Positions 1 through 7,537 of a stretch of 64,000 nt of DNA are shown one piece after another (position 1 is the first letter of the stretch; each line of letters opens with the position of its first letter). The stretch comes from a bacterium (GTDB lineage: Bacteria; Zhuqueibacterota; Zhuqueibacteria; Zhuqueibacterales; Zhuqueibacteraceae), in contig JBIOXB010000137.1 in assembly GCA_044869275.1 (NCBI GenBank), positions 1 through 64,000 of the forward strand, read 5' to 3'. The position numbers were made by a program, and so were the translations under genes. The notes under the pieces are model-generated. The model was not told the origin of the DNA. It saw only the letters and a list, made by a program, of their open reading frames with translations, and ran no database searches.

Positions 1-76
1 CACCGGAGAAAATACCAATCAGGCTTATGATCGTGTGCACCACAGTAAAAGCAAATGTTGACATACCCAAAATCAT
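1..76 (-). CDS. 5' end of a hypothetical membrane protein, runs off the window edge
   Basis: Minus strand reads AAGGAGG RBS, then ATG at 76: MILGMSTFAFTVVHTIISLIGIFSG (hydrophobic). Confidence 0.6.
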   Translation of the reverse strand, partial: MILGMSTFAFTVVHTIISLIGIFSG

Positions 77-325
77 GACTCGCCTCCTTGCAAGAATCAT
101 CAGCCAGCTAAATGAAAAACACAGACTCCACATCGCGGCAGCATCGCAACCAAAAACTTTGCTAAGCATGCAGAGTCTTGCAAATTTGTACTACAAAGAA
201 CACAAAATTGCAAGAAGAAAAATCAGGCGAATGCCCGTTTTCACTTTCAATTTATTGAATGTGAAGATGGGCTGTTTTTTTGCTGAGAACACGCCCAAGT
301 GAGGGCTCCCAAATCCGATCATTCA

Positions 326-438
326 AAAGACAGAAAAATGGAAGGCAGAAAAATGTTTCTGGCTTCTCGTTGCTCCGCGGTGAGCATTGCTTTGATGATG
401 CCAAACTCCATGTTTTTGCCTCTCATTTTTCTGTCTTT
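326..438. repeat. Palindromic intergenic element with a 15-bp perfect inverted repeat
   Basis: AAAGACAGAAAAATG (326-340) / CATTTTTCTGTCTTT (424-438); related GACAGAAAGATG arms near 9065-9095 and 20477-20573. Confidence 0.65.
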
Positions 439-725
439 GCTTTTGTTTAAGCCGACTGAACACTATAAAGCATTCGGAATCTTTTTGTTCTGTGAGTGTG
501 AATTCGAACCTATCGTGTTCACCGTCCGGGCGCTAAGATTAATGTACGCACGTGGTAAACCAGGCAAGCGCCCGGACGGTGATTGAACTGTTACGAATTT
601 GCAACCACACTTGTCGCAATACAATCCAGATGCCAATTGTATGTCATTGATAACACCTTGGCCCACGTATCACAAAATTGCGATCTTTGTGAATTCGCGA
701 AGTTTTCGTGAAGGATATCAGGGGC

Positions 726-789
726 GAAGTCCGACTTGTACGAGACGAGTTTTGTAAACATCGGAGCCTTTGGGCACAAGTCGGACTTC
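726..789. repeat. 14-bp perfect inverted repeat
   Basis: GAAGTCCGACTTGT (726-739) / ACAAGTCGGACTTC (776-789). Confidence 0.7.
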
Positions 790-971
790 ATTCACCGCAC
801 GTCGGGGCTGAGCAGTGACTTTGACTCGGATGTGATGAGAAAAATGCGGCGAAGGAGAGCTTGCACGTATCGCGAAGAAGCTTGATTAAATCACGCATCG
901 AAAACTCTAACCTTGACAGAGATAACATCGTCGTCTATATTCAACCGATTAACAAAAGGCAGAACTCCTCT

Positions 972-1334
972 ATGAACCTCGATTCTCCAAAAGCAGGCCG
1001 CGAGCTTGATGCTTTGATTGGTGAAAAGATCTTCGGCGTGCGCTACGAATTCATGCATAATGATTACATGATTCCCGACCCCGAAGATCCGGTTGCGTAC
1101 GATGTTTGCCCTCATTATTCAACCGATATTGCCGCCGCGTGGCAGGTGCTTGAGAAACTATTGACCATGACTGAAAACCGGGATATTCACCTCGAGCATC
1201 TGGGAAACGACGAGACTGAGGGATATTGGGGAGTTTCGACTTGCTATCAGTTGGGTGAATGGCAGGACTGGATGAGGGCGGAGACTGCGCCTTTGGCAAT
1301 TTGCCTTGCCGCACTCCAAACAATTGCGGCGTAG
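972..1334 (+). CDS. Phage ABA sandwich domain (BC1872-like) protein
   Basis: Motifs GRELDALIGEKIFG, PHYSTDIAAAWQVLEKL, AETAPLAICLAAL; ATG at 972 preferred over TTG at 861. Confidence 0.8.
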   Translation: MNLDSPKAGRELDALIGEKIFGVRYEFMHNDYMIPDPEDPVAYDVCPHYSTDIAAAWQVLEKLLTMTENRDIHLEHLGNDETEGYWGVSTCYQLGEWQDWMRAETAPLAICLAALQTIAA

Positions 1335-1654
1335 ATCTTCAAGCTGGAAAAACGCTGAAATCCGCTGGGCACCAAGGAGATTAAATCCAACCAGAGATGT
1401 ACCTTCCGAATTCAGAAATCGCGAGTCCCGATTTCGAATCGTTGCAGAAGCTAGTTCGCTGATACTTGCCATCTTGATAGACTCACTTTTTGCTGGATAC
1501 TGGTATATTGTTTTTATTAACTTTAATCTGAATTATACTATTTTGGTCGTTGATTCAACCATCTACTGCCGCCGCGAAAGTACCCTTCAACATACCGAAT
1601 GCCTTTGCAGCACTCTATGATTGTTATTTTTTTACTATTTGTAAAAAAATTTAC

Positions 1655-1683
1655 TTGCATAAGACTTTCATTTTTTGTATATA
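1655..1683 (+). promoter_or_regulatory. Sigma70-like promoter for the retron operon
   Basis: TTGCAT (1655-1660), 17-bp spacer, TATATA (1678-1683), AT-rich upstream tract. Confidence 0.6.
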
Positions 1684-1689
1684 GTATTC

Positions 1690-1979
1690 AGTTGGGTGCT
1701 ACGCCCTGTTCTTTGAAATTGGAATGATCATGTGGTGCAAGTCGCAGAATTTCTCCTTCGACGCCGTCTAATTTATTCGTCCGGCGTCAAGCTCCTGTTT
1801 GGGAGCATAAATGGATCTCAAATCCAACTCAGGTTGCTAGATCTGAGACGCTTTTGCGCAGTACGGGAAGTATATGCCTGTTTATCCTCAACAACGGCAT
1901 ATTCGTTCACAGGTTTTTGGAAGGATGAGTAAGATATATTCATTCCTGATTAGCTACCAATTTCAAAAGGAGAAGTTCA
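1690..1979 (+). ncRNA. Putative retron msr-msd non-coding RNA
   Basis: a1/a2-like 11-bp inverted repeat TTTGAAATTGG (1712-1722) / CCAATTTCAAA (1957-1967) enclosing hairpins at 1760-1788, 1791-1806, 1816-1848, 1872-1902 and 1923-1946; upstream of a retron RT. Confidence 0.75.
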
Positions 1980-2243
1980 ATGACCGATGATGACGCTCAA
2001 GAACGGGCGTTAAGTTTGCTTGAAGAAGCTCTACAAAAAGCAGAGATGCTTTTGACTTCTTCAACACATGATCAATTGTTAGTTAGGTCTCTTTTACATG
2101 ACCTGACGAGATTAAAAACACAACTGGATGGTTTAAGGCTCAGTGGTGTTCCTCGGAAAGTGCCGGACGACGAATTTTGGCCGGTAGTTTCGCTGATTTT
2201 TTCGAAGATAGCTGAACTGCTAGTTGAAAAGCTCTTCAAATGA
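1980..2243 (+). CDS. Small helical protein, candidate retron effector/toxin
   Basis: 87 aa; strong RBS AAGGAG; coiled-coil-like N-terminus and amphipathic C-terminal helix FWPVVSLIFSKIAELLVEKLFK; lies between the ncRNA and HTH-RT. Confidence 0.7.
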   Translation: MTDDDAQERALSLLEEALQKAEMLLTSSTHDQLLVRSLLHDLTRLKTQLDGLRLSGVPRKVPDDEFWPVVSLIFSKIAELLVEKLFK

Positions 2244-2336
2244 TCGCCGAGGCAATCTCAATAAAGTAGGTTACGGGAAGAGACTTCCAAAACTGTCATC
2301 AATTTTCACTAAATATACACGCGCGAGGTCGTTGCC

Positions 2337-2681
2337 ATGACTCAGATGGGAGATGTGCTCAAGCATCTACGAATAGCATCACGTATTAAACAGAAAGCAA
2401 TGGCTGAACAACTTGGTATCTCACCAACCTATCTTTCGCTAATTGAGAACGGCCAACGAGAGCCAAGTATTGAAATCTTAGAAAAATACGCCGGCTCACT
2501 CAACGTACCCTTGGCCTTCCTTATCCTGCAAACTGAGGGCGATCTCCAGAGCTTAGATACTGAGCAACTGGAGTTGTTCGAACAAATTCGAAGACTCTTG
2601 TTTGACTTCCAGAAACTTAGATCTCAATCATCAGTGAAAAAACCCCATGGGAAGCAGTTCAAGAAAATGCGAGACTCTTAA
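2337..2681 (+). CDS. XRE/Cro-C1 family HTH protein (retron-associated)
   Basis: LKHLRIASRIKQKAMAEQLGISPTYLSLIENGQREPSIEILEKYA; overlaps the RT start by 35 nt. Confidence 0.9.
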   Translation: MTQMGDVLKHLRIASRIKQKAMAEQLGISPTYLSLIENGQREPSIEILEKYAGSLNVPLAFLILQTEGDLQSLDTEQLELFEQIRRLLFDFQKLRSQSSVKKPHGKQFKKMRDS

Positions 2682-3597
2682 AATTCATACCCACAAACAT
2701 CTTCAGTACCAGCTCGGCCTGCCATTAGGTTCGCTTTTCAAAATTGCAGATAACATTGCAAGGTATTATGAACGTTACGAAAGTGCCAAATCAGGAAAAC
2801 ATAGAATCTATTACAATCCAAAACCTGAATTGCGCGAGGTTCAAAATCGAATAAAGCAGTTACTCGAGCGTCTTTCACTGCCAGAATATTTGAAAGGCGG
2901 GATCAAGGGTGGGTCTGCGTTTACAAACGCTCAAAATCACCTCAATGCAAAGTTCTTACTGAATCTTGACGTTTCCAATTTTTATCCTACCATAAAACCC
3001 AAACGCGTTTATCAGTTGTTTATAAAGCTTGAATGTCAGCCTGATATTGCAAGGCTGCTGACAAGATTAACCACCGCCGACTATCACCTACCCACTGGAT
3101 TCATCACAAGTCCATTGATCGCCAATTTGATCATACACGATTCCTTCGGAGCACGGCTGTACGAATTAGCGCAGAGCCACAAGGCAAAATACACTCAATT
3201 CTATGACGACACGACGATTTCGGGTGGAAACTCCATTTCTCGATTGCTTTTAAAGGCTAAATCAATAATTGCACAATCTGGCTTCAAAGTACATCCGAAC
3301 AAGGGTGGGTTCTTCATTGGAAAAGAGAGGCCAGCAGTCACTGGTTTTCGAGTAGGAAAAAGAATTACTATTGATCGAAAGTATCGCAGAGACTTAAGAA
3401 AAATTCTCAGCGATTGTATAAGAATCAATCCTTCAGAATTCATTCGCTCGAAATTGCTTCCCGATGGTGCGAGACGATTTGATACTGTCGAAACTTTTCG
3501 ACAACACCTTCAGGGACGCGTGAACTACTTGAAGCACGATCCCATACAATTCAAACGGTTCAAAGAACTTTTTGATCAAATTGATTGGGAGAATTAG
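2647..3597 (+). CDS. Retron-type reverse transcriptase
   Basis: 316 aa; region X NAQNH (NAxxH), LDVSNFYPTI, LPTGFITSPLIANL, catalytic YTQFYDDTTISG, region Y VTG; no maturase or endonuclease domain. Confidence 0.93.
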   Translation: MGSSSRKCETLKIHTHKHLQYQLGLPLGSLFKIADNIARYYERYESAKSGKHRIYYNPKPELREVQNRIKQLLERLSLPEYLKGGIKGGSAFTNAQNHLNAKFLLNLDVSNFYPTIKPKRVYQLFIKLECQPDIARLLTRLTTADYHLPTGFITSPLIANLIIHDSFGARLYELAQSHKAKYTQFYDDTTISGGNSISRLLLKAKSIIAQSGFKVHPNKGGFFIGKERPAVTGFRVGKRITIDRKYRRDLRKILSDCIRINPSEFIRSKLLPDGARRFDTVETFRQHLQGRVNYLKHDPIQFKRFKELFDQIDWEN

Positions 3598-3604
3598 CAA
3601 AACT

Positions 3605-3930
3605 CACAATTTATCCTCCTCCAGAATTGGGCTATTGAAGCACACCTTCGATTCCCAATCATCCAACATTTCTCGTGATTCTTCACTTGTCACCCGCACA
3701 TATTGGCAATTGATCAACGAGTCCTTGTAGCGAATGAATCCGCGTCGGTTTGCACAGCTGCGATGACCCTGGCACCAAACCGATCTTTCTTAATGCGGTG
3801 AAGGTTTACTAGAAGTAACCGGGGCCAGACCATCCGAAAACAATAGCAGCGCATTCCAATCTTGCCTCGTTACAAAAGCACTCGCACCGATTCTTGTCAT
3901 CCCAACTCGACCTACTTTACTTTCTTCCTC
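3605..3930 (-). pseudogene. Possible degenerate PemK/MazF-like toxin remnant
   Basis: Broken minus-strand frames give AFVTRQDWNALL..LAPVTSSK and KDSLINCQYVRV, resembling MazF motifs. Confidence 0.3.
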
Positions 3931-3976
3931 ATTCTAAAGCTCGAACGATTTAAACGTAAACGACCTGTTTACCCGG

Positions 3977-4445
3977 CTAAGAAGCCTGCAACTCCTCCAA
4001 GCAAGAAACAAAACCAATTTTATATCTGCCCAAAATACGCCGCACATATCCCTTGCCGCACCAATAACTCAGCACGATAATTATCAACCCGCCGGCGAGC
4101 CAGAGGAAAACAGTGGTAGGCTCGCCGCTATGTTTGGCAAGCATGAAGAATTCCAGAAGCACGATCATACTCACGATGAGCACCGTGTAAGTTTTCATGG
4201 TGGAATCCAGTTTGCCAATCATGTAGGTCAGGGATTCGCGCAGGCTCCCGGTCAAATGCACGGAGCGCAGTTGCCGGGACTTGAACGAGAGTGTGGCGAT
4301 GAGCATGCCGACCAACAGCAGCATGAATCCCAAGTAGAGCGCGTTGGTCAAATATTCAGGCCTTGCGAAGCATTGGTAAAGACGATGGCGAGGATTATCG
4401 GCAACCGGAGATTTCCGTGCATAGCCTGCGGATTTTCTGCGAAAA
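3977..4445 (-). pseudogene. Degenerate duplicate of the membrane-protein gene at 6941-7537
   Basis: 3948-4445 aligns by eye to 6912-7425, with a small in-frame deletion, a frameshift near 4350 and no 5' end. Confidence 0.85.
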
Positions 4446-4529
4446 CTCGACAAGAACCTGCTGGTTACCCCGTGTAGTGGCATAGACTCTACTCACTAAC
4501 GACCTTTGCAACTCTCTTACGCAGTTTCG

Positions 4530-4652
4530 TAGAGTTGATATTCTCCTTTCATCTCGAACGAGAGAGCCGAAGAGCCCCGCCCATTTCACCAAGTAGCGCC
4601 GTAAAATCGGCAGGATTTTCTGTTTGATCTCGTCAATATTATTTGGGGCCAT
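4530..4652 (-). pseudogene. Truncated duplicate of the nucleotidyltransferase gene at 5264-5554
   Basis: MAPNNIDEIKQKILPILRRYLVKWAGLFGSLVR nearly matches the N-terminus of 5264-5554, then diverges before DxD. Confidence 0.8.
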
Positions 4653-4699
4653 GGTTCATTCCTCATTGATCCTGCCAATATCCAATGGCCTGTCTCCAT

Positions 4700-5059
4700 T
4701 CATGCCTGCGCTACGCGCGTCCGGTTAGACAAACGCTTGGCGCCCGCTTTCGGCTTGTGCATTTGTTCTGAGGAATTGACCAAACCTACTTGAAGCCGCT
4801 TTCCTAATGCCAACGCCGCACGTTCCAAGGTTTGCAGGGTAACAGAACCGTTTTCAGGGTCAAGCAAACGCTCAAGCGCGGCACGGCTTGTTTTCATGCG
4901 TTTTGCCATCACCGTTTTGGTAATGTTGGACGATTCCATCAACTGTGATATTTGATAAGCAACGCCCCGTTTGACTGCTACGGCTTCGGCTTCAACAAGC
5001 AAACCTTCATCCTCAAGAAATTCATCAAAATTACTGCCCACATACTTCTGGTTCATCAT
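4700..5059 (-). CDS. HigA-like XRE-family antitoxin
   Basis: MNQKYVGSNFDEFLEDEG...TKTVMAKRMKTSRAALERLLDPENGSVTLQTLERAALALGKRL; own GAGGAG RBS. Confidence 0.8.
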   Translation of the reverse strand: MMNQKYVGSNFDEFLEDEGLLVEAEAVAVKRGVAYQISQLMESSNITKTVMAKRMKTSRAALERLLDPENGSVTLQTLERAALALGKRLQVGLVNSSEQMHKPKAGAKRLSNRTRVAQA

Positions 5060-5074
5060 TGACTCCTCATCATT

Positions 5075-5179
5075 GATTCTCTTTTCTGAACGCGATAAGC
5101 TGCGAAACCATTCTCGAACAGGTTCATTGCCCGATTCGGTTCTATAAAAATTGCCTTGCAGGCGCACCCCGGTGTTCAT
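5075..5179 (-). pseudogene. N-terminal remnant of a RelE/HigB (gp49-like) toxin
   Basis: FYRTESGNEPVREWFRSL is the typical N-terminus; only about 35 codons remain, running in frame into the antitoxin. Confidence 0.75.
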
Positions 5180-5263
5180 AGAATAAATGTACTACTTTTG
5201 ATACTCACAGTCAAACGCTGACTTTGACTAAAATGTCAGAAATGTACAAACTAACATCCTGTT

Positions 5264-5554
5264 TCATAAAATGACCAACTGCTCTCGTAAGATGGCGTCT
5301 TTAATCGTCGGCTTGATTGTGTCATACTCCACCAAATCCACGCGCCGCTCCAAACTGTCTTCAATCTCCTGTTCGATTCCGATGAAGTCGAGCAGGCTGA
5401 TGTTCCTGTCGATTTCCGCCAGAATGTCAATGTCGCTATCTTCCTTGATTTCGCCTCGAACCAGAGAGCCGAAGAGCCCCGCGCGTTTCACCGCGTGGCG
5501 GCGTAAAATCGGCAAGATCTTCTGTTTGATCTCGTCAATATTGCTCGGCAGCAT
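5264..5554 (-). CDS. Minimal nucleotidyltransferase (MNT/MntA-like)
   Basis: LFGSLVRGE..SDIDIL, RRVDLV motifs; 96 aa. Confidence 0.9.
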   Translation of the reverse strand: MLPSNIDEIKQKILPILRRHAVKRAGLFGSLVRGEIKEDSDIDILAEIDRNISLLDFIGIEQEIEDSLERRVDLVEYDTIKPTIKDAILREQLVIL

Positions 5555-5699
5555 GGTTACACCACAAGAGTAAAGTCAAACTTGCAGGAATTATTCAATT
5601 ACAGTCAATTCTAGAAAGTTCAAATCTATCCTTGATTGTCCGAAAAAAGTATGCTATTTTTTCTCGGATCAAAATTGTACTCATGGTTTGACATCATGA

Positions 5700-6059
5700 A
5701 TGAATAAGCCAAGAGAAAACGTTATGGGTCTTTCTCAACCTGGAACGACAGAAGTAGCCGCACGGATCACCCAAAGAATTGTGGAACGTTTTCATCCACT
5801 GCGTGTCATTCTATTCGGCTCTCATGCGCGCGGCGAGGCAGACAGCGACAGTGATTATGATCTGCTCATCATCGCGCCTTCAGATAAACCTCGTTGGCAA
5901 CGCACAGTGCCGGTATATCGTGCGCTTGCAGGAATGGGCGTTCCCAAAGATATTGTCTGGTGGACACCTGAGGAGATCGCAGAGTGGGACGGCGTAAAAT
6001 CGCATTTCATCAATACCGTCCTTCGCGAAGGAAAAGTTCTTTATGAAAACGCCATTTGA
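5700..6059 (+). CDS. Nucleotidyltransferase domain protein (MNT antitoxin)
   Basis: ILFGSHARGEADSDSDYDLLII; overlaps the HEPN gene. Confidence 0.9.
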   Translation: MNKPRENVMGLSQPGTTEVAARITQRIVERFHPLRVILFGSHARGEADSDSDYDLLIIAPSDKPRWQRTVPVYRALAGMGVPKDIVWWTPEEIAEWDGVKSHFINTVLREGKVLYENAI

Positions 6060-6456
6060 TAACGCCAAAGGACTTTTGGAAAAAGCGGCCAACGATTTAG
6101 TGGCAGCACAAGCTACAATGGCCACCGGTCGAGCGCTGGACACGGTTTGTTTCCATGCCCAGCAATCCGTCGAGAAAAGTTTGAAAGCAATACTCGCGTT
6201 GCATGATATTGAATACCCGCGACGGCACGATTTGAATGAGTTGATAGAATTGATCAGGCCGCTTCTCCCAGAAATCATCTCATACGAAAATCGCATCATG
6301 ACCTTGTCCCCGTTCGCTGTTGAAATTCGGTATGACACTCTGTTTGATCCATCAAGCGAAGAAGCTCACGAAGCATTAAAACTTGCAGATGAGTTTCACA
6401 CCTTTACCAGCAAGATCGTCGAAACACAAGCTCCCAACATGCCGAGCAAAAAATGA
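6043..6456 (+). CDS. HEPN domain protein
   Basis: CFHAQQSVEKSLKA, HDL, AVEIRY motifs; coupled to MNT. Confidence 0.9.
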   Translation: MKTPFDNAKGLLEKAANDLVAAQATMATGRALDTVCFHAQQSVEKSLKAILALHDIEYPRRHDLNELIELIRPLLPEIISYENRIMTLSPFAVEIRYDTLFDPSSEEAHEALKLADEFHTFTSKIVETQAPNMPSKK

Positions 6457-6505
6457 ATCAAAAACTGCTTTAGAATAGTGATAATGCTTTTCAAAGAGTG
6501 GCCAA

Positions 6506-6712
6506 ATGAGCCAATTTGTAACAGAGGCTCGCGTTGAAAAGGGCCGGTTGGAATTATTCAACATTCCCTTCTCGGATGCCACTGAAGTGAAAGTCTTCGT
6601 GATTCCCAAGGCTGATCTGTCCCGCATGTCATTTTTTGAAGCGAGAAAGTTGACCGGTTCAATCAAGGACAATCTTGCCAATAGCATTAGCAGAGAACGC
6701 GATGACAGATGA
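6506..6712 (+). CDS. Small putative antitoxin (VapB-like position)
   Basis: 68 aa ending in ISRERDDR; ATGA overlap with the PIN remnant. Confidence 0.55.
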   Translation: MSQFVTEARVEKGRLELFNIPFSDATEVKVFVIPKADLSRMSFFEARKLTGSIKDNLANSISRERDDR

Positions 6713-6858
6713 ACTTCTTTCTAGATACAAACGCGGTTGTCAAGCTATATCACCAGGCTGTCCCAGTAGATTACTTCTTTACTGCCGATAAAAAGCTTCT
6801 GAGAATCGCCAAAGTTTACTTCCCCGCCTTCAATCCAGGGCAGCCGATATCGCAATAA
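6709..6858 (+). pseudogene. VapC/PIN toxin with a large internal deletion
   Basis: 49 aa MNFFLDTNAVVKLYHQ...FFTADKKLLRIAK..FNP: PIN N- and C-terminal motifs adjacent, core missing. Confidence 0.75.
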
Positions 6859-6940
6859 GGCTGTTCAAGCAAAATATGTTTGATCGCTGAAACCGACTTG
6901 ATGTGCGGACAATTTAGACGTAAACAGCCCGTTTGCCCCG

Positions 6941-7537
6941 CTACGAAGCCTGCAACTCCTCCAAGCAAGACACCAATTGCACTTTATACTTCCCCAAAAT
7001 ACGCCGCACATATCCCTTGCCGCACCAATAACTCAATGCGATAGTTATAAACCCGCCGGCGAGCCAGAGCAACACAGTGGCAGGCTCGCCGCTATGTTTG
7101 GCAACCATGAAGAATTCTAAAAGCACGACCATGCTCACCATGAGTGCCATGTACGCGGCCATATAGCTTTTCATGGTGGAATCCAGCTTGCCAATCATGT
7201 AGGTCAAGGATTCGCGCAGACTCCCGGTCAATTGCACAGAGCGCAGTTGCCGGGATTTGTGGGAGAGTGTGGCGATGAGCATGCCGAACAACAGCAGTAT
7301 GAATCCCAAGTAGAGCACCTTGGTCAAATTCAGGCCTTGCAAGGCATTGGTCAAGAGGAGAACCAGGATGATCACGTAATAGGAAATTTCCGTACGCAGC
7401 CGGCGGCGGATTTTTCGGCGAATGTCGGTGCTTTTGTCTTGCAAGAGTTGCATGATTTCCTCCTTGCTCAATTGTTTTTCGCGCGCCTGAGCAGCAGATT
7501 CCTGTTTCCAGTTTTTTTTCAGCTCGTCCAGGTTCAT
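6941..7537 (-). CDS. Membrane protein downstream of an ECF sigma (putative anti-sigma)
   Basis: MNLDELKKNW start, about four hydrophobic segments, ATGA coupling to the sigma gene. Confidence 0.75.
   Translation of the reverse strand: MNLDELKKNWKQESAAQAREKQLSKEEIMQLLQDKSTDIRRKIRRRLRTEISYYVIILVLLLTNALQGLNLTKVLYLGFILLLFGMLIATLSHKSRQLRSVQLTGSLRESLTYMIGKLDSTMKSYMAAYMALMVSMVVLLEFFMVAKHSGEPATVLLWLAGGFITIALSYWCGKGYVRRILGKYKVQLVSCLEELQAS

Follow-up and report, generated by a model that had tools for sequence, protein, structure and literature searches.

The locus described here raises the question of what kind of RNA is encoded directly upstream of a retron operon. The DNA analysed (the window) comprises 64,000 nucleotides (nt) of contig JBIOXB010000137.1, positions 1 to 64,000 of the forward strand, in assembly GCA_044869275.1 of a bacterium of the phylum Zhuqueibacterota, and the element in question is its segment 1690–1979, referred to below as the leader. 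In a classical msr-msd region, such as that of Ec86 (Eco1), the inverted repeats a1 and a2 flank a set of hairpins, with msr on the 5′ side, the template on the 3′ side and the reverse transcriptase (RT) gene downstream on the same strand. An earlier note, made from the sequence alone, had read the leader as a candidate msr-msd RNA of this kind. We consider it likely that 1690–1979 is instead the 5′ non-coding domain of a longer RNA of a Type VI retron, a type of RT system directed against phages, in which the 3′ hairpins act as template and the closing stems hold a likely toxin untranslated until the system is triggered.

A structured leader upstream of a Type VI operon

The operon downstream of the leader was identified by PADLOC as a Type VI retron, with genes for a small protein (SP), a helix-turn-helix (HTH) protein and an RT in that order, all on the + strand:

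1980–2243, + strand: SP gene, 87 amino acids (aa), helical and acidic in its N-terminal part and with a hydrophobic stretch, EFWPVVSLIFSKIAELLVEKLFK, at the C terminus
2244–2336, + strand: spacer between the SP and HTH genes, with a small hairpin GGAAG-AGA-CUUCC at 2276–2288; it lies within one of the RNA contigs described below (X5)
2337–2681, + strand: HTH gene, Cro/C1-type, 114 aa; Pfam HTH_3, 5.6e-15; PADLOC HTH_VI, 6e-23
2647–3597, + strand: RT gene, 316 aa; Pfam RVT_1, 3.7e-14; PADLOC RT_VI, 3.1e-69 (231 bits)

The HTH gene overlaps the start of the RT gene by 35 nt. The second-best PADLOC profile for the RT was RT_III-A (4.8e-51), and the RT sequence contains FTNAQNH, FYDD and AVTG; NAxxH and VTG are hallmarks of retron RTs. 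SP matched no family in Pfam or PADLOC, and its C-terminal hydrophobic stretch, EFWPVVSLIFSKIAELL, read from the translation, agrees with the small proteins of Type VI in the classification of Mestre et al. 2020, as summarised in 10.64898/2026.04.27.721009 (section 25). The operon belongs to the Type VI retrons. Two members of this type are described in recent preprints, Retron-Vpa2 (Zhang et al., bioRxiv 10.1101/2025.10.22.683967) and Retron-Sen3/cl2075 (Garcia-Rodriguez et al., bioRxiv 10.64898/2026.04.27.721009); by analogy with both, SP is predicted to be a toxic effector. Because the operon downstream is of Type VI, 1690–1979 can be read as the non-coding 5′ domain of a hybrid RNA, that is, one that runs on into the SP coding sequence.

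The leader was found to be folded more stably than expected by chance. The minimum free energy (MFE) of 1680–1985 was −94.3 kcal/mol, compared with −76.0 ± 5.3 kcal/mol in dinucleotide shuffles (z = −3.47; 0 of 100 shuffles as stable), and the 647-nt RNA from 1690 to 2336 gave z = −3.52, with none of 20 shuffles as stable. When 880 GC-corrected segments of 290 nt, taken from both strands of the whole window, were ranked by fold, the + strand of 1690–1979 came 14th and its − strand 141st, the latter being 10.5 kcal/mol weaker. This preference fits an RNA read from the + strand, since several stems hold G-U pairs. The SP-HTH spacer (2244–2336, z = +1.18) and the segment downstream of the RT gene (3598–3976, z = −0.31) showed no unusual structure, and compared with these two the leader is the only unusually structured stretch at the locus.

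These data bear out the view of the earlier note that the region encodes a retron RNA: all seven sequence strings it had listed are present where it had placed them, and they lie directly upstream of a Type VI operon in an unusually structured segment. The note had also named 2244–2336 as a place where the RT-derived DNA (RT-DNA) might map if its reading were wrong; this alternative template site is unlikely, because the remaining non-coding parts of the locus are unstructured. No second copy of the leader was found in the bacterium's own genome, and cmscan of 1–6000 against Rfam (E up to 1) gave no match within 1690–2336. A weak Rfam match to RAGATH-8 at 4607–4678 on the − strand (E = 0.16; 18 bits, the gathering score being 86.7) is most likely due to chance.

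Closing helices, hairpins and the putative template

Two long-range helices can close the leader, and both involve the Shine-Dalgarno sequence (SD) of the SP gene or its immediate surroundings:

1709–1722, + strand: a1, the 5′ arm of helix A; its core 1712–1722, TTTGAAATTGG, pairs with 1957–1967, CCAATTTCAAA
1725–1734, + strand: switchable segment; its partners are 1947–1952 (helix A extension) or 2065–2074 in the SP coding sequence, the latter with 10 of 10 Watson-Crick pairs
1747–1758, + strand: anti-SD arm, the 5′ arm of helix B, GAAUUUCUCCUU, which pairs with AAGGAGAAGUUC at 1967–1978
1957–1978, + strand: shared 3′ side, consisting of a2 (1957–1967, to 1971 when extended) and the SD arm (1967–1978)

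Helix A is the closing stem proposed in the earlier note. All 11 pairs of its core are Watson-Crick pairs, and a perfect repeat of at least 11 bp was seen in only one of 300 dinucleotide shuffles of 1690–1979; the core is extended by TGATCA (1725–1730) and TGATTA (1947–1952) with one G-U pair. Helix B, which the note had not listed, has 12 bp including one G-U pair and was equally rare (1 of 300 shuffles). The repeat and its extension are thus real features of the sequence, but helix A was the favoured closing stem in no fold, helix B being preferred. Helix B was the MFE choice, with a pairing probability of 0.79 in the 290-nt RNA and 0.98 in the 647-nt RNA, against 0.17 and 0.00, respectively, for helix A. 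Forcing helix A gave a fold of −88.5 kcal/mol versus an MFE of −90.2 kcal/mol; the penalty was 1.7–4.2 kcal/mol in the leader alone, 14.4 kcal/mol when the first 100 nt of coding sequence were included and 7.9 kcal/mol in the full RNA.

The SD, AGGAG at 1968–1972, lies 7 nt ahead of the SP ATG. Its probability of being unpaired was at most 0.03 in the free fold, and that of its GGA core was at most 0.12 when helix A was forced, in which case U1709, U1710 and C1711 pair with A1971, G1970 and G1969, with A1968 bulged. The SD is buried in both states because the helix A extension also pairs GGA, so that in these models the ribosome-binding site (RBS) would be covered whichever of the two helices forms. 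Helices A and B appear to be mutually exclusive on geometric grounds, since their 3′ arms adjoin, with A1967 in common, and one helix crosses the other along the chain; to accommodate both, a pseudoknot would have to span 11 bp with a loop of zero length.

In the fold of the 647-nt RNA, the SD, the start codon and 2065–2074 all pair with the strand 1725–1758, and the resulting duplex, which has interruptions, encloses two hairpins of the coding region. Within it, the pairing 1741–1744/1981–1984 covers the SP start codon (pairing probability 0.77), and 1725–1734 pairs with 2065–2074 (0.96). No significance is claimed for the latter, since runs in shuffles of 647 nt average 8.8 bp, close to the 10 bp seen here. 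In the same fold a1 pairs weakly with 2300–2306 (0.57). As modelled, the arrangement resembles the published three-arm picture.

Along its length, the leader is predicted to fold into a series of hairpins, listed here with their pairing probabilities and followed by the candidates for the branching G:

1694–1706, + strand: 5′ stem-loop, GGGUG-CUA-CGCCC, 5 bp with a 3-nt loop, 2–5 nt upstream of a1
1760–1788, + strand: H1, GACGCCG/CGGCGUC, 7 bp (1760–1766/1782–1788) with a 15-nt loop, 0.99; on the predicted msr side
1791–1806, + strand: H2, GCUCCU-GUUU-GGGAGC, 6 bp (1791–1796/1801–1806), 0.98
1812–1847, + strand: two adjoining hairpins, 1812–1816/1822–1826 (0.94) and 1828–1835/1840–1847 (0.99)
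1849–1858, + strand: small hairpin, CGC-UUUU-GCG, 0.90
1866–1908, + strand: H5, AUAUGCC-UGUU...AACA-GGCAUAU (1872–1882/1890–1902) with an outer GGA/UUC (1866–1868/1906–1908), 0.95
1912–1958, + strand: H6, a composite hairpin with its core at 1926–1942; ATGAGTA/TATTCAT (1925–1931/1937–1943), 7 bp with one G-U pair, core 0.96
1721, 1722 and 1726 (helix A model) or 1760 (helix B model), + strand: candidate branching G, read from the sequence only

The 5′ stem-loop had a pairing probability of 0.77 in the 290-nt RNA and 0.95 in the 647-nt RNA, and its final base, 1706, is where the earliest RNA contig starts. The hairpins drawn in the earlier note at 1694–1706, 1760–1788, 1791–1806, 1872–1902 and 1925–1943 were all recovered; its third internal hairpin, TCTCA..CAAC/GTTG..TGAGA at 1816–1848, had a pairing probability of 0.00 and gave way to the two adjacent hairpins at 1812–1847.

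The predicted msd template comprises the 3′ hairpins, at about 1866–1956, with H5 as the best candidate for the core msd stem-loop. Placing msr 5′ and the template 3′, as the note did, is canonical and holds for either closing helix because both 3′ arms abut; taking the 5′ hairpins as msr and the 3′ hairpins as msd would be a sensible default, the template role itself being a prediction. Copying would start just 5′ of the 3′ arm, at 1956 with helix A or 1966 with helix B, and run leftward through H6 and H5. A product of 86 nt, as in Vpa2, would then end near 1870–1880, and products of 112 or 145 nt, as in Sen3, near 1812–1855. When the complement of 1866–1956 was folded as DNA, H5 survived and H6 lost its G-U pair. 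The widest internal hairpins span 43 and 47 nt, and no single long, DNA-stable msd stem of the classical type was found. The multi-hairpin RT-DNA expected by the note would not be unusual for the type, since the multicopy single-stranded DNA (msDNA) of Vpa2, of 63 or 86 nt, is described as combining a long stem-loop with a 5′ stem-loop of 23 nt (10.1101/2025.10.22.683967). Like a classical msr-msd, the locus has inverted repeats around a set of hairpins and an RT gene downstream on the same strand; unlike one, its RNA continues into a protein gene whose RBS sits in the closing stem, and it lacks a single long msd stem.

Other repeats and pairings were also considered. A perfect direct repeat of 9 nt, TACGGGAAG, occurs at 1862–1870 (between hairpins H4 and H5) and 2272–2280 (in the SP-HTH spacer); the anti-SD arm pairs with its first copy in the helix A fold; in 650 nt, chance alone would give about one repeat of this kind. 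Vpa2 has a conserved 7-nt direct repeat (10.1101/2025.10.22.683967), and a search for repeats of that type here gave 11 families, the best being TACGGGAAG (1862, 2272) and GAGAYGCUUUUG (1845, 2043), none beyond chance. Two long-range pairings, 1915–1923/2284–2292 (9 bp, at chance level) and 1770–1785/2162–2177, were rejected, both having a probability of 0.00; a variant at 2177 disrupts the second.

RNA contigs, relatives and published systems

A small share of the sequence words of 1600–3600 was found in each of four metatranscriptome runs, every one from a different study (two of freshwater sediment, one of soil and one of sediment). The contigs obtained, one per run and 95–99% alike, were aligned to 1500–3700 and covered the following positions:

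1706–1898: contig X7
1748–1978: contig X4
1813–1972: contig X8
2062–2323: contig X5

All four contigs fall within 1706–2323, inside the predicted RNA (1690–2336), and none on the HTH or RT gene (2337–3597). This hints at a leader-SP RNA in large excess over the HTH-RT message, a situation described for Vpa2 and Sen3. The extent of contig X4 nearly coincides with the helix B domain (1747–1978), and X8 stops at 1972. These two end points suggest, though only weakly, that an RNA terminates at the 3′ edge of helix B; the span of X4 could reflect a stable processed leader species or a coincidence of low depth.

Nine differences between the contigs and the window were listed, six in the leader and three in SP. 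In the leader, 1761 A>G keeps its H1 pair as G-U and 1939 U>C replaces a G-U pair of H6 by G-C; the middle pair of H2 is lost through 1793 U>C (C against A), and 1948 G>A breaks the pair C1729–G1948 of the helix A extension, a base that is unpaired in the MFE fold. The remaining two, at 1809 and 1933, fall on unpaired bases, the latter in the loop of H6. In SP, the variants at 2129 and 2177 are at third codon positions, and that at 2212 (contig X5) changes Ala78 to Val, a residue present in all three SP homologues; judged from the sequences, the A78V change fits a coding constraint on SP.

Few close relatives were found. A collection of 5.8 billion protein clusters contained four close homologues of the RT (77, 73, 67 and 65% identity) and three of SP (83, 80 and 63% identity), and the SP homologues lie on contigs equal in length to those that carry three of the four RTs. 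With the RT alignment at E 1e-30, none of the remaining 166 genomes of the phylum yielded the retron; the lone RT match there was an unrelated RT of 502 aa with 29% identity. A search of 61 relatives together with all 167 genomes of the phylum returned only the genome itself, plus unrelated RTs at 29–32%. Genome contigs searched with the RT gave two distant loci only, and metagenome contigs searched with an alignment of five RTs gave two loci at 31–34% identity; viral contigs gave none with that alignment and 69 loci at 24–36% with an alignment of ten RTs. A tblastn search of plasmids returned 132 records, all below 60% identity and at most 33% among the matches listed. In the scans of genome, metagenome and viral contigs RT identity reached at most 37%, too distant for the leader to be aligned.

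Five more distant loci (L007, L010, L012, L013 and L016) were compared with the window, the first four of which PADLOC confirmed as Type VI. Each of the five has an inverted repeat of at least 9 bp whose 3′ arm ends 7–13 nt before the putative SP start. In L016 this repeat is the closing helix of the entire leader (UUCCUCCCAC/GUGGGAGGAA), and the closing stem of L007, a locus from a gut metagenome, is in two parts, with its 3′ arm running right up to AAGGAG. At the position of the 5′ stem-loop, L007 carries GCUGGCG-CUA-CGCCAGU, which shares its CUA loop and the CGCC of its 3′ strand with the stem-loop of the window. Between 1700 and 1735 of L007 this stem-loop is followed by CUCUUUGA, and the window has UUCUUUGA at 1694–1722. 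Going by these two sequences, the stem-loop and the string after it may represent a 5′ motif conserved within a Type VI sub-lineage. The match may be due to chance, because a stem-loop followed by CUUUGA was not found at a comparable place in the other scanned loci. The RT of L007 is 31% identical to that of the window by alignment (34% in the best tblastn segment), and the RT of L012, from an enterobacterial plasmid, is 28% identical. SP was compared by BLASTP with one other SP, that of L016, and showed no similarity to it (E = 12). At 1558–2655 of L010, on the Bacteroides uniformis plasmid pBUN2, RT_VI was matched at 9.5e-84 with an SP-like open reading frame (ORF) of 71 aa directly upstream and no HTH gene between; it belongs to the minority of Type VI loci that lack HTH.

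The two preprints allow a comparison of the locus with dissected systems. Vpa2 makes an abundant hybrid RNA of about 470 nt, in which an msr-msd-like leader is joined to the SP coding sequence; its msDNA accumulates only upon triggering or on mutation of the HTH gene, and translation of SP requires msDNA, which suffices when supplied in trans (10.1101/2025.10.22.683967). The locus shares with Vpa2 the SP-HTH-RT operon, a structured leader ahead of the SP coding sequence, the RBS and start codon in stems, and a hydrophobic C-terminal helix of SP. Also in common, as predicted here, are the long-range pairing of the 5′ part with the later transcript and the template stem-loops just 5′ of the 3′ repeat. 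Unlike in Vpa2, the SD here is predicted to be held by a dedicated 12-bp anti-SD arm, which competes with an a1/a2-type helix.

In Sen3, the non-coding RNA (ncRNA) lies within about 280 nt of the SP start and is bounded by terminal inverted repeats, and its basal stem contains the RBS of SP. Defence cannot do without a stem-loop of 5 bp, with a loop of 3–14 nt, that directly precedes the 5′ repeat; in RNA-seq, coverage continues through SP to the RBS of HTH, and an alternative long-range pairing involves a repeat downstream of the SP stop (10.64898/2026.04.27.721009). Single-stranded DNA (ssDNA) and SP are made constitutively and HTH neutralises SP; the cl2075 lineage is found mainly in Beta- and Gammaproteobacteria (10.64898/2026.04.27.721009). 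Here, too, terminal inverted repeats lie within about 280 nt of the SP start, the RBS is in the basal stem, a 5′ stem-loop (1694–1706; 5 bp, 3-nt loop) precedes a1 by 2–5 nt, coverage by the contigs of the RNA runs may reach to just before the HTH RBS, and predicted alternative conformations involve sequence past the SP stop. The locus differs from Sen3 in that its IR1-IR2-like pair (the rejected 1915–1923/2284–2292) is at chance level, and in its host, which lies outside the proteobacteria as far as kinship shows, in a small phylum of 167 genomes.

The G + C content of the locus is 0.39–0.44, versus 0.54 for the 64-kb window, and is low across about 1–7000. ORFs for nucleotidyltransferase (MNT-type) and HEPN proteins, two MNT and one HEPN, adjoin the retron at 5264–5554 (− strand), 5700–6059 (+ strand) and 6043–6456 (+ strand), and are likely to be HEPN/MNT toxin-antitoxin modules. 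Together with the low G + C content, the retron and the MNT/HEPN pairs look like a small acquired defence and toxin-antitoxin island. Directly upstream of the retron, a 157-aa ORF (861–1334, + strand) encodes a Phage_ABA_S (phage ABA sandwich) domain (5.2e-14).

Explanations weighed and what they mean

By analogy with Vpa2 and Sen3, the RNA from about 1690 to about 2336 would be one abundant hybrid RNA bound by RT and HTH. At rest, helix B, together with 1741–1744/1981–1984 and 1725–1734/2065–2074, is predicted to hide the SD and the start codon; HTH would restrain the RT and/or neutralise SP, as in those two systems, and little DNA would be made. On phage attack the RT would copy H6 to H5, from about 1956 back to about 1866 or further, into msDNA. 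The msDNA, probably with RNase H cutting of the copied RNA, would open the closing stem, SP would be made and growth would stop.

Several points weigh against this reading. The contigs carry no strand, ends or abundance, RNA libraries may hold DNA and gaps in coverage prove nothing; the four contigs leave 1690–1705 and 1979–2061 uncovered. The leader variants, which come from near-identical contigs, keep pairs in two cases, break them in two and fall on unpaired bases in two, which is chance level with no covariation; they neither support nor refute the structure, because random transitions keep about half of all pairs. The DNA fold of the complement of 1866–1956 is weak (−7.8 kcal/mol over 91 nt), and unlike Sen3 the leader has no long SL3 (about 166 nt in the Sen3 account). 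The promoter scan listed no site before 1690; TTGCAT-17-TATATA at 1655–1683 is AT-rich and promoter-like by eye only. The comparison loci were chosen by availability and not at random, and the SP starts in L007, L013 and L016 are our own calls. Finally, the translational-switch step may not apply here, because Sen3, as its preprint describes it, makes SP and ssDNA constitutively.

The last point leads to the main rival, in which ssDNA and SP are constitutive as in Sen3, HTH is a protein antitoxin, and the leader serves RT recognition and templating. Sen3 has the same gene order, a 5′ stem-loop and the RBS in the basal stem, yet its SP was detected without phage (10.64898/2026.04.27.721009), and the 5′ stem-loop at 1694–1706 closely fits the published description. 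We nevertheless think this mode unlikely here, as the SD is fully buried in every fold, SP is dissimilar to the SP of L016, the RT is distant from that of L012, and the cl2075 lineage is mainly beta- and gammaproteobacterial. Taken literally, the model of the earlier note is a free-standing msr-msd closed by 1712–1722/1957–1967, with the branching G just 3′ of a1 and the RNA ending before SP. The rarity of the perfect 11-bp repeat, the 5′ stem-loop directly before a1 as reported for Sen3, the 3′ arm of L007 ending right before its SD and the two contigs from two studies that end at 1972 and 1978, a weak hint of an RNA end, would all suit such an RNA. Against it stand the cost of helix A relative to helix B (1.7–4.2 kcal/mol in the leader, 8–14 kcal/mol with coding sequence), the variant 1948 G>A in the helix A extension, the contig spanning 2062–2323 and the two published Type VI transcripts, both of which run through SP; a self-contained msr-msd is for these reasons a doubtful account.

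It is also conceivable, though quite improbable, that the leader is a translational riboregulator of SP only, with the template elsewhere or with an RT that makes no msDNA. The msDNA is a prediction here, and a census quoted in section 25 of 10.64898/2026.04.27.721009 includes six Type VI retrons without detectable ssDNA; however, folding elsewhere in the non-coding parts of the locus is no more stable than in shuffles, the RT retains FYDD, and the ssDNA of Vpa2 and Sen3 maps or is assigned to the leader (10.1101/2025.10.22.683967; 10.64898/2026.04.27.721009). To the view that the hairpins are due to chance, or that a small GTG-start ORF of 66 aa at 1732–1932 is the functional feature, we give hardly any credence. 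Two of the three variants inside this ORF are at third codon positions, but a word-based search of limited reach found no homologue of it, and the argument against chance draws on the z-scores of the folds, the difference between the strands and the rarity of the two long-range helices.

The leader is thus best placed among the hybrid-RNA leader domains of Type VI retrons, a kind described in 2025–26, and represents no new type of msr-msd. Type VI was the one retron type without a recognised ncRNA until those preprints, and its few dissected members are all from Proteobacteria. The same layout is seen here in a soil or sediment bacterium of a small and distant phylum: a 5′ stem-loop, terminal repeats, an RBS in the closing stem and a transcript through SP, the continuity of which is hinted at by the contigs. 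Its SP family has only three relatives in the collection of 5.8 billion protein clusters, and contigs from four independent metatranscriptome studies hint that in nature, as in laboratory strains, the leader-SP RNA is an abundant species.

The two rare, mutually exclusive helices also suggest, in concrete terms, a way in which reverse transcription could be coupled to translation of the toxin. Tentatively, and with no great expectation that it is correct, we propose a two-state switch in which the priming helix A and the anti-SD helix B form one at a time. With helix B, the rest state, the RNA would be neither primable nor translatable; a trigger would flip it to helix A, licensing reverse transcription and loosening the SD and start codon. 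If true, such a switch would explain by a single rearrangement why Type VI retrons make no msDNA or toxin until attacked.

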